Assembly (NCBI RefSeq): GCF_056712565.1
Contig: NZ_CM160072.1
Length of the DNA: 64,000 nt
Direction: 5' to 3' (one strand)
A program made the translations under genes and the position numbers. Under the pieces are notes generated by a model. It was not told the DNA's origin, made no database searches, and saw nothing but the letters and a program-made list of their open reading frames with translations. Of this stretch, positions 60,824-62,135 are shown in pieces; position 1 is the first letter of the stretch, and every line of letters begins with the position of its first letter.

Positions 60824-61446
60824 AAAAGCACCTTCTTGGCCGAAAGATACCGTACACGCCGGTCGTCGATACCGTTTCTGCCACCATTGATAATCAGAGT
60901 TACACGTGCAATATCGCCGGTATACTTCATGCATCCTTTGCTGGCGAAGAACCACGCCGCGCTACGAGCCGCATATTCGTCCTGCGCCAGCAGTTCAGGG
61001 CTCTCCAGCAGGTCAACCTTCAGACCGTTTCCGCAATCACGATAGTTATTCAAACCGGTAATCTGGATAAGTCCGCGCCCTCGGTAATTCCAGCCATCAC
61101 CAGGGGCATTGTTCCCCATGCGTTTGCTGTATACCAGATTTGCGATCGCGCGCTGGCGCTCAAGTGGCAATGGTGGTTCACCAGCACGGCGCCCCAGTGC
61201 ATTAGCCTGCCCCTGAGTGAGACGCCCAGCCCGAACGAAGTTAGCCAGTCCGCTGACACTGTAGTTGAAATTCTCCTGCAACCTGGTGAAGCCCCCAGAC
61301 TCATGCCCGACTTGAGCAATAAACATTGCCTGATCTTCTGCTTTGCTGATACCAAACTCTTTCATCGCAGAAGTTATATGCGAGAACCAGCGTGCGGCCA
61401 GTGCCTCGCTGATACCAGCAGCTCGCTGGAATTGTTTAATCTCCAT
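60820..61446 (-). CDS. Phage endolysin, glycoside hydrolase family 19 (chitinase class I-like) type
   Basis: ORF 60820..61611 trimmed to '[11 protein letters not shown]..' (GAGG RBS 6 nt upstream); motifs '[12 protein letters not shown]' and '[16 protein letters not shown]' resemble GH19 signatures (..FLAQ.SHETTGG.. / YYGRGPIQLSWNYNY). Confidence 0.8.
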
Positions 61447-61744
61447 GTTTAGACCTCGATACTTTAAAAATTTGAACGACGTTACCGCGCGTTTTAATAA
61501 CCGCAGCCAGCATGACAGCGTTGATAATGACCTCAGATAAATCCACAGCCATTGGCGTACGTAACCAGATTGCATAGGCGACTCGAACAGGAATACTGGC
61601 CGCAGCAACAATCAGGAAATAAGCAAGCCATCCTCCCCACCTTCGATGTTGAGAGCCGTTACGCCGGAATGTGACAACGCGAATTGCTATGCCAGTGCAA
61701 ATAACTGCATTGGTGATAAGCAAAAAAAACTCATGCGTTACCAT
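61436..61744 (-). CDS. Holin-like membrane protein (3 predicted TM segments, charged C-terminus)
   Basis: 102-aa ORF directly upstream of and overlapping the endolysin start by 11 nt; hydrophobic segments with basic C-terminal tail. Confidence 0.55.
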
Positions 61745-62135
61745 CGTCTTTTCTCCCCGGAATTAACTCGCGTGGATTATCGGAACGGTGATAGAGCCAT
61801 ATACCAATACGCACAGCGACAATTGCTGACACGAATGCGCCTGCAGAGAAAACAATCCCTTTTTCAAAAGAGTCCTGCGTGATGGTAGGGATCAGGCTGG
61901 CTATGCCGATAAGAATTGATGCTGCTGGTTTGTAAAAGAGAAGGCCACAAAGAAAGCTGAGCATCGAAAGGAGCACCCGGCGACGGATGGGGTACTCTAC
62001 TGCAGAGGTAACAAAAATTACCGCCCCAGCCAAAGCCCCTAAAGCAACCTCCGGAGGGACACCTGCAATAACCGCAGCAAGAGAACTAAAACTAAGCAAC
62101 TGATTTAATTGCTCACTTGTTACTTGAGCAGACAT
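61731..62135 (-). CDS. Holin-like membrane protein (3-4 predicted TM segments, charged C-terminus)
   Basis: 134-aa ORF, first gene after the AT-rich intergenic region; AGGAG RBS 7 nt upstream of the ATG; overlaps next gene by 14 nt. Confidence 0.55.
   Translation of the reverse strand: MSAQVTSEQLNQLLSFSSLAAVIAGVPPEVALGALAGAVIFVTSAVEYPIRRRVLLSMLSFLCGLLFYKPAASILIGIASLIPTITQDSFEKGIVFSAGAFVSAIVAVRIGIWLYHRSDNPRELIPGRKDDGNA

Follow-up and report, generated by a model that had tools for sequence, protein, structure and literature searches.

The window analyzed here is a 64,000-nucleotide stretch of contig NZ_CM160072.1 from the NCBI RefSeq assembly GCF_056712565.1. It carries a lysis cassette in which two membrane protein genes, hereafter A and B, are followed by a GH19 endolysin gene, orf74, and then Rz with Rz1 embedded in another reading frame (Table 1). 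The overlaps between consecutive genes are 14 nt for A and B (61731-61744) and 11 nt for B and the endolysin (61436-61446), the ATG codon of the latter lying at 61446. Shine-Dalgarno-like sequences were found upstream of A (AGGAG), B (GGAG), and the endolysin (GAGG). These sizes and overlaps agree exactly with a preceding sequence-only reading of the window, which had described two consecutive membrane protein genes of 134 and 102 aa with the same two overlaps. The mechanical list of open reading frames also contains a 263-aa ORF (60820..61611) with a TTG start inside B, which is an over-extended form of the 208-aa endolysin; the plus-strand ORFs across 61436-62135 are short.

Table 1. Genes and features of the lysis cassette, with coordinates in the analyzed window.
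Feature	Coordinates	Strand	Description
Gene A	61731..62135	-	134 aa, ATG start, TGA stop; Pfam Phage_holin_8 (PF16931) membrane protein
Gene B	61436..61744	-	102 aa, ATG start, TAA stop; Pfam Phage_holin_3_7 (PF05449, formerly DUF754)
GH19 endolysin	60820..61446	-	208 aa, soluble; Pfam Glyco_hydro_19, PHROG 181 endolysin
orf74	60599..60823	-	74-aa acidic soluble protein; PHROG 2241 (unknown function), E 2.6e-25
Rz-like inner-membrane spanin (DUF2514)	60120..60602	-	160 aa, N-terminal TM helix; PF10721 E 5e-44, PHROG 312
Rz1-like outer-membrane lipoprotein spanin	60128..60403	-	91 aa; lipobox LALAGC; PHROG 11621 Rz-like spanin E 1.6e-40
Terminator-like hairpin and T-run	59943..59970	-	3' of the spanin genes; consensus scan only

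The orf74 gene lies between the endolysin and Rz genes with an ATGA overlap at each end. It is missing from most relatives of the cassette, and most related records align with the locus in two pieces. Its copy in Escherichia coli GPEC1337 is annotated as hypothetical, and a similarity search with orf74 returned only weak partial matches within larger or unrelated genes of Pseudomonas and Vibrio phages. An embedded gene of the Rz1 type is also annotated in the record of phage phiV10, which in addition has an annotated terminator at the place equivalent to the terminator-like hairpin of the present locus. This hairpin likely represents the end of the lysis transcript, near the junction between the prophage and the chromosome.

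The cassette is 100% identical to a region of the E. coli GPEC1337 chromosome, where it adjoins the ppk-ppx-pdeF-yfgG-yfgH-yfgI genes. In that genome, the five consecutive products carry the PGAP labels 'putative holin', 'phage holin family protein', 'glycoside hydrolase family 19 protein', 'hypothetical protein', and 'DUF2514 domain-containing protein'. At the DNA level, the identity is 99.2% to the temperate phage vB_EcoP_ZX5 and ~89-93% to phiV10, TL-2011b, and other Uetakevirus phages, and related DNA was detected in 564 of the 5426 complete E. coli genomes. The identity to GPEC1337 and the Uetakevirus matches together indicate that the window comprises host chromosome and one end of an epsilon15/phiV10-like (Uetakevirus) prophage. 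The transcript levels of the 'holin' were measured in the ZX5 study, which contains no functional work on the proteins (PMC9782041). The holin annotation of the pair is already present in public records, and the locus is a near-identical copy of a published phage cassette.

Profile searches placed both proteins in families of putative holins, as the sequence-only reading had anticipated. Protein A matched Pfam PF16931 with 45.6 bits (gathering cut-off 26.4, E 9e-12, profile positions 12-109 of 121) and PHROG 198 'holin' with an E value of 7e-41, and its relatives carry PF16931 as a precomputed domain too. Protein B matched PF05449 over profile positions 2-80 of 80 with 94.2 bits (gathering cut-off 25.4, E 5e-27) and PHROG 217 'holin' with an E value of 1.5e-35. 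No non-lysis membrane protein family was matched above threshold by either protein. No above-threshold match was obtained for A or B in NCBIfam or PADLOC. Besides PF16931, the Pfam search with A returned only a sub-threshold YiaAB match, and no match to PF05106 was found in the Pfam scan. Membership in a defence system was rejected on the lack of above-threshold matches to defence families, and matches to SMR/Qac and TrbA were dismissed as far below their cut-offs. By profile-profile alignment, A and B are unrelated and do not represent a gene duplication (hhalign probability 2.5%), nor is B a detectable relative of lambda S (hhalign probability 5.4%). Both proteins are highly conserved, as a lysis role had been taken to imply. 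The ratio of nonsynonymous to synonymous divergence (dN/dS) relative to phiV10 and Tyrion is 0.07-0.08 for A and 0.08 for B, at a synonymous divergence of 0.7-1.4, which indicates that A and B are genuine protein-coding genes under strong purifying selection.

The hydropathy profile of B contains three strong hydrophobic segments (about 5-26, 37-62, and 64-85), and its AlphaFold2 model, of low confidence (pLDDT 63), has helices at 2-25, 35-61, and 69-84 and an amphipathic helix at 89-98. An alignment of 20 homologues showed a short acidic N-terminus, a hydrophobic helix at ~6-26, and a strongly basic loop at 27-35 (consensus RRxGxRHR), followed by a helix at ~37-58, an acidic loop at 59-71, a helix at 72-85, an invariant R86-G87-N88 motif, and a basic amphipathic tail. 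Class I holins are defined by three TM domains with a periplasmic N-terminus and a cytoplasmic, highly charged C-terminus. The predicted topology of B, with three TM helices, an N-out/C-in orientation, and a basic tail, corresponds to this class.

Protein A contains three to four strong hydrophobic segments. Its AlphaFold2 model (pLDDT 77.5, pTM 0.62) has four long helices at 7-24, 28-44, 50-79 (with a kink at 67), and 92-119. Across 30 homologues, the first 45 residues are devoid of positive charge. Gly, Ala, Ser, and Thr are abundant in helix 1, which has weak hydrophobicity, a basic loop follows helix 2, and small-residue motifs are conserved at G33xxxG37, S60xxxG64, and G99-A100. The C-terminal tail is charged but has no net charge. 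The pattern of charge and hydropathy leads to two alternative topologies for A: in one (N-in/C-in), all four helices would cross the membrane, and in the other (N-out), three would cross it and helix 1 would lie at the interface. The three to four membrane segments of A, the three of B, and the charged C-terminal tails of both had all been noted from the sequence alone, and each was recovered in the present analysis. A fold search of the PDB with the A model gave no significant match, and a search of a viral library gave a borderline match (E 1.4e-3) to the 'holin' of Enterobacter phage EcP1, which is probably a family relative.

The first gene had also been singled out in the sequence-only reading as a place to look for a dual start. 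We scanned both genes, and the outcome was negative for each: neither A nor B has a second in-frame ATG or GTG close to its start, the remaining in-frame candidates being TTG codons at position 13 of A and position 8 of B, both lacking a Shine-Dalgarno sequence. In-frame stops are located just upstream of both starts. The start-codon scan excludes a dual-start holin/antiholin of the lambda type (S107/S105) in either gene, so any timing control must come from another gene.

The endolysin has no hydrophobic segment at its N-terminus and matches the solved SPN1S endolysin 4OK7 along its entire length (E 5e-116). Since the enzyme has neither a signal nor a SAR (signal-anchor-release) segment, holin-dependent release is expected, and a soluble folded enzyme needs a hole big enough for a folded protein. 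The earlier expectation of canonical holin-dependent export, drawn from the apparent lack of a signal-anchor in the GH19 enzyme, is in line with both observations.

We further assessed the distribution of the pair across phages. A tblastn search with B recovered 229 phage records from Ralstonia, Klebsiella, Pseudomonas, Salmonella, Escherichia, Burkholderia, Aeromonas, and other hosts, and the same search with A recovered 36 records, all of close relatives. From outside Uetakevirus, 16 records were sampled at even steps down the ranking by B similarity: D3, RSA1, HK639, FSL SP-058, MA11, KpCHEMY26, AsXd-1, KPN N137, CF136b, 1 LV-2017, SaltyDalty, M16-3, pPE4, VIPKPNMC05, CharmingMan, and UF_RH7. 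They cover lambdoid and other siphoviruses, P2-like myoviruses, and N4-like podoviruses. In each of the 16, the gene immediately upstream of B, in the same orientation, was identified as an A homologue (A profile, E 1e-23 to 1e-46), and 12 of these records had not been used in building the profile. Conversely, three distant A representatives, located on four contigs, were each followed directly by a B-like gene (4/4; B profile E 1e-8 to 1e-29), which had no precomputed Pfam label in two of the three. Scans of IMG/VR with the B proteins of D3, RSA1, and HK639 identified 233 loci. In every one of the 224 that had enough flanking sequence to assess, A lies directly upstream of B, and these loci represent 159 distinct sequence pairs. 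In total, no loss of A was observed in 244 assessable loci (16 + 4 + 224).

In a set of 19 loci (the 16 sampled records together with GPEC1337, phiV10, and Tyrion), A and B overlap by 1-14 nt in 17 with the start calls used here; the 28-nt gaps in the remaining two, MA11 and UF_RH7, depend on which start is assigned to B. Pairwise identities among the A proteins correlate with those among the B proteins (Mantel r 0.83, reached in 0 of 5000 permutations), with r 0.47 below 60% identity, a correlation of divergence that could be explained by tight linkage alone. By these comparisons, A and B are an invariant unit, always co-occurring and co-inherited in the loci sampled.

The enzymes encoded after the pair are far more variable. 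The lysis-cassette context with an endolysin and spanins was observed in nearly all of the 16 sampled lineages, the exceptions being D3, which has no endolysin after the pair, and CF136b, in which the next gene matches a putative phage metallopeptidase family and may not be an endolysin. The endolysins encoded downstream of the A-B pair belong to at least five families. Those assigned include GH19 (this locus, HK639, and AsXd-1), PF11860 muramidase with or without PG_binding_1 (RSA1, M16-3, and MA11), GH24 lysozyme (SP-058), GH108 with PG_binding_3 (SaltyDalty), and Peptidase_M15_4 (pPE4). These enzyme swaps after a constant pair indicate that A-B moves as a module that is independent of the enzyme type. 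None of the 17 downstream proteins sampled has an N-terminal hydrophobic segment (maximum 17-residue hydropathy <=1.1), and this consistent association with soluble enzymes argues for a large-hole holin and against a pinholin.

Published annotations of the two genes differ between phages. The pairs of the Burkholderia phages KS5, KS14, and KL3 were annotated as 'putative antiholin' and 'holin (DUF754)' on the basis of position and topology alone (Lynch, 2010; PMC3091744), and the same 'putative antiholin' and holin annotation was repeated for AP3 (PMC5247547). The KpCHEMY26 record uses the labels 'antiholin/holin' and 'holin', and in D3, pPE4, and other records both genes are called 'holin'. 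A full-text literature search found no experiment on either the PF16931 or the PF05449 family. Papers on the UE-M6 holin, N4 gp62/gp63, LambdaSo, Jerseyvirus S10, B. cenocepacia H111, and epsilon15 LysSA05 were considered as experimental reports on A or B and were rejected as concerning unrelated proteins.

Based on these results, we concluded that the A-B pair is very probably the holin system of a holin-endolysin-spanin cassette in an epsilon15/phiV10-like prophage. The sequence-only reading had proposed either a holin/antiholin pair or a holin with a second pore-forming protein, serving a soluble GH19 endolysin, and this proposal is supported by the assignment of both proteins to putative-holin families, by their conservation, and by their position in the cassette. 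It is very improbable that the pair is instead a pinholin-type system or a pair of non-lysis membrane proteins (for superinfection exclusion, or a moron). Mislabelling of small membrane proteins of phages is easy, and the Pfam and PHROG names were given on position and topology rather than on tests. A pinholin, however, requires a SAR or signal endolysin, which is encoded neither here nor in the sampled loci that have an endolysin. No match to defence or other families was found, and across many unrelated groups of phages the pair lies immediately upstream of an endolysin, frequently with stop and start codons that overlap.

Two divisions of labor between A and B merit closer consideration. 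Antiholins such as lambda S107, T4 RI, and N4 gp62 are non-essential, and against this background the absence of any loss of A in ~160 distinct pairs is more than would be expected of a dispensable inhibitor. Because A was never lost in these pairs despite repeated endolysin swaps, whereas known antiholins are dispensable, we tentatively favor, though with somewhat less than even confidence, a two-component holin in which A is a required partner of B. In such a holin, A and B would be translated from one late mRNA, in a fixed ratio as suggested by the overlap of the A stop with the B start, and both would build up in the inner membrane. B would act as the core hole-former of class I topology. 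A, an unrelated four-helix protein rich in small-xxx-small packing motifs, would co-assemble with B and would be needed for correctly timed triggering. Once triggered, the unit would open holes through which the cytoplasmic 23-kDa GH19 endolysin could pass in its folded state to the cell wall, after which Rz and Rz1 would disrupt the outer membrane. The structure of the genes, their families, the predicted topologies, the invariant A-B adjacency, and the soluble nature of the endolysin are results of the present analysis, whereas we infer that a hole is formed, that it is of this size, that A and B are in contact, and that A is required rather than merely inhibitory.

Several observations weigh against a required role of A. 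A specific antiholin that can act only on its own holin would also be expected to co-occur strictly with it, provided that losing the antiholin is costly. The divergence of A and that of B are less well correlated among distant pairs (r 0.47), and the B model is of low confidence (pLDDT 63). Published records call A a 'putative antiholin' (PMC3091744, PMC5247547, and the KpCHEMY26 record).

It is nearly as likely as a required role of A that B alone is a complete class I holin and that A is a specific inhibitor, which binds B in the membrane and delays triggering but is not needed for the hole. This is the standing annotation in the Burkholderia P2-like phages and KpCHEMY26, and it fits B, which has every textbook class I feature as far as predicted. 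With dual starts absent from both genes, the regulatory role would fall to a trans-acting factor, and an inhibitor would travel with its target where premature lysis is costly. Antiholins encoded by a separate gene have precedents in P2 Y/LysA and P1 LydA/LydB. Lynch et al. noted a prediction of four TM domains for P2 LysA, as for some homologues of A (PMC3091744). On the other hand, an inhibitor of this kind should occasionally be lost, and A is present in all 244 assessable loci despite many endolysin exchanges.

A reversal of the roles, with A as the hole-former and B as the regulator, is improbable. A belongs to a Pfam family named holin, is called 'putative holin' by PGAP, and has glycine-zipper-like motifs typical of pore-lining helices. 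In the alp locus of P. aeruginosa, moreover, the first gene, alpB, is described by Pena et al. as a putative holin and the second, alpC, as an anti-holin (PMC7969949), and Hynen et al. reported that either AlpB or Hol is enough for the GH19 enzyme Lys to bring about lysis (PMC8131026), a precedent that is relevant only if AlpB and AlpC belong to the A and B families. However, it is B and not A for which three helices in the canonical N-out/C-in orientation, together with a strongly basic tail, are predicted, and the tail of A is without net charge.

The two-component holin with A as a required partner could also be generalized. In its broadest form, PF16931 and PF05449 proteins would constitute a heteromeric, obligate two-component holin, forming a distinct class very widespread in phages of Beta- and Gammaproteobacteria; neither protein would form the lethal hole alone, and the weakly hydrophobic, uncharged helix 1 of A would act as a topology switch determining the time of triggering. 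We regard this extended version as less likely than not.

Few lysis modules are as common as the A-B pair in phages of Enterobacteria, Pseudomonas, Ralstonia, Burkholderia, and Klebsiella. The choice between a holin with an inhibitor and a holin of two subunits bears on many genome annotations and would inform the use of such cassettes in engineered lysis systems. The present locus alone adds little, and the wider comparison of the pair is modestly useful.

Among known systems, the closest are the cassettes of the Uetakevirus phages epsilon15, phiV10, SPN1S, Tyrion, and vB_EcoP_ZX5, in which the gene order and the overlaps of 14 and 11 nt are those of the present locus. Their proteins are 91-99% (A) and 81-100% (B) identical to those of this copy, and their records name A 'membrane protein / putative holin' and B 'holin'. 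The present copy differs from these cassettes in the additional orf74 gene that separates the endolysin from Rz. The O-antigen acetyltransferase gene found upstream of A in phiV10 and Tyrion is missing here, and the tailspike of this prophage is an endosialidase. The Burkholderia P2-like phages KS5, KS14, KL3, and AP3 encode both families, with A first, in abutting or overlapping genes directly before the endolysin and spanin genes, and equivalent A-B pairs occur in RSA1, D3, HK639, SP-058, and KpCHEMY26. In the SP-058 record, the A gene is noted as similar to KS5 gp35 and the B gene to epsilon15. The proteins are only ~20-40% identical, and the types of endolysin and virion differ.

The alpBCDE self-lysis cassette of P. 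aeruginosa is described as comprising a prophage-derived putative holin/anti-holin pair that needs a GH19 endolysin, Lys (PA0629), encoded elsewhere. This arrangement resembles D3 and L034, in which the pair has no adjacent endolysin. A protein search with the D3 homologue revealed no cluster present on as many contigs (hundreds to thousands) as a P. aeruginosa core gene would occupy. The published alp qPCR and ChIP primers, scanned against genome and metagenome contigs, gave no matches or chance matches lacking A/B ORFs.

Two adjacent small membrane proteins upstream of an endolysin, with joint lysis timing, are also reported for phage N4 (gp62/gp63), for F1-cluster mycobacteriophages, with the holin-like pair LysF1a/LysF1b, and for SPP1 (gp24.1/gp26). 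In N4, the pinholin gp63 has one TM domain and the lysis regulator gp62, a non-essential antiholin, has two, and the endolysin is of the SAR type (PMC12642591). All three pairs are analogues rather than relatives of A-B, those of the F1-cluster phages and SPP1 coming from mycobacterial or Gram-positive hosts.

Lambda S105/S107 and other class I holins resemble B in their three TM helices, the N-out/C-in charge pattern, and the basic C-terminal tail, as well as in the position of the gene before the endolysin and the soluble nature of the endolysin partner. B differs from lambda S105/S107 in having no detectable sequence relationship and no dual-start motif, and in always being accompanied by a second, unrelated protein, A.

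The endolysin of the lysis cassette starts at the ATG at 61446 and comprises 208 aa, in agreement with the annotation of other records and with the homologue of solved structure. The longer 263-aa frame obtained from a mechanical ORF list, which opens at a TTG within gene B (the 102-aa PF05449 membrane protein), was rejected on the same grounds. Between the endolysin and Rz lies orf74, which shares an ATGA overlap with each neighbour. Among the records listed, only two of the 15 from E. coli cover orf74, and it is absent from most related prophages and phages. Matches elsewhere are only weak and partial, falling inside other genes of one Pseudomonas phage and several Vibrio phages. 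Possible roles for this gene are those of a moron or of an accessory to lysis.

Features flanking and within the lysis cassette
Feature	Coordinates	Strand	Basis or remark
yfgI	59362-59901		chromosomal side of junction
Strong terminator-like hairpin	59943-59970	minus	between yfgI and Rz
Rz end	60120		prophage side of junction
orf74, 74 aa, acidic, soluble	60599-60823	minus	ORF; PHROG 2241 (annotated unknown function)
263-aa ORF	60820-61611	minus	mechanical ORF list; TTG start inside gene B
AT-rich spacer, 305 bp	62136-62441		upstream of gene A
Hairpin CCCGCAAAATATTGCGGG, then T-run	62417-62434	plus	within spacer
Tailspike gene	62442-64000, continues past window end	minus	annotation of identical E. 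coli record

The spacer upstream of gene A (the 134-aa PF16931 membrane protein) contains several weak promoter-like sites in addition to the hairpin. In the related phages phiV10 and Tyrion, this position is instead occupied by an O-antigen acetyltransferase gene on the opposite strand, and the spacer may be either what is left of a serotype-conversion moron or a landing pad for one. For the adjacent tailspike, the identical E. coli record gives an endosialidase catalytic beta-propeller protein carrying the C-terminal intramolecular chaperone, an annotation that suggests the K1 polysialic acid capsule as the target of the prophage. Several of the close relatives, among those listed, reside in strains recorded as serotype K1 or as being of APEC/ExPEC origin.

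At the other side of the cassette, the junction between prophage and chromosome falls within 59902-60119. Because the integrase comes after Rz in phiV10, the attachment site should, by analogy, lie in this interval.

Variant arrangements of the A-B pair were observed among the compared loci. The reading frame of B runs on for 204 codons in one IMG/VR contig (L156:1501-2115) and for 287 codons in another (L167:1501-2364), so that B appears to be fused to the downstream gene, and the 232-aa database protein P0005 carries the PF16931 and PF05449 domains in one chain. Natural fusion is one possible explanation of these cases; the other is a frameshift or an assembly error where the genes overlap. 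A further pair (PF16931 and PF05449; L034:2501-3195) resides in an apparently ordinary bacterial chromosome beside phosphoesterase, NUDIX, and PAS-GGDEF-EAL genes, with no endolysin or spanin within 2.5 kb; the pair of phage D3 also lacks an adjacent endolysin. Without such a neighbour, the pair might act through an enzyme whose gene lies at another locus, an arrangement reported for AlpB and Lys of P. aeruginosa (PMC8131026).
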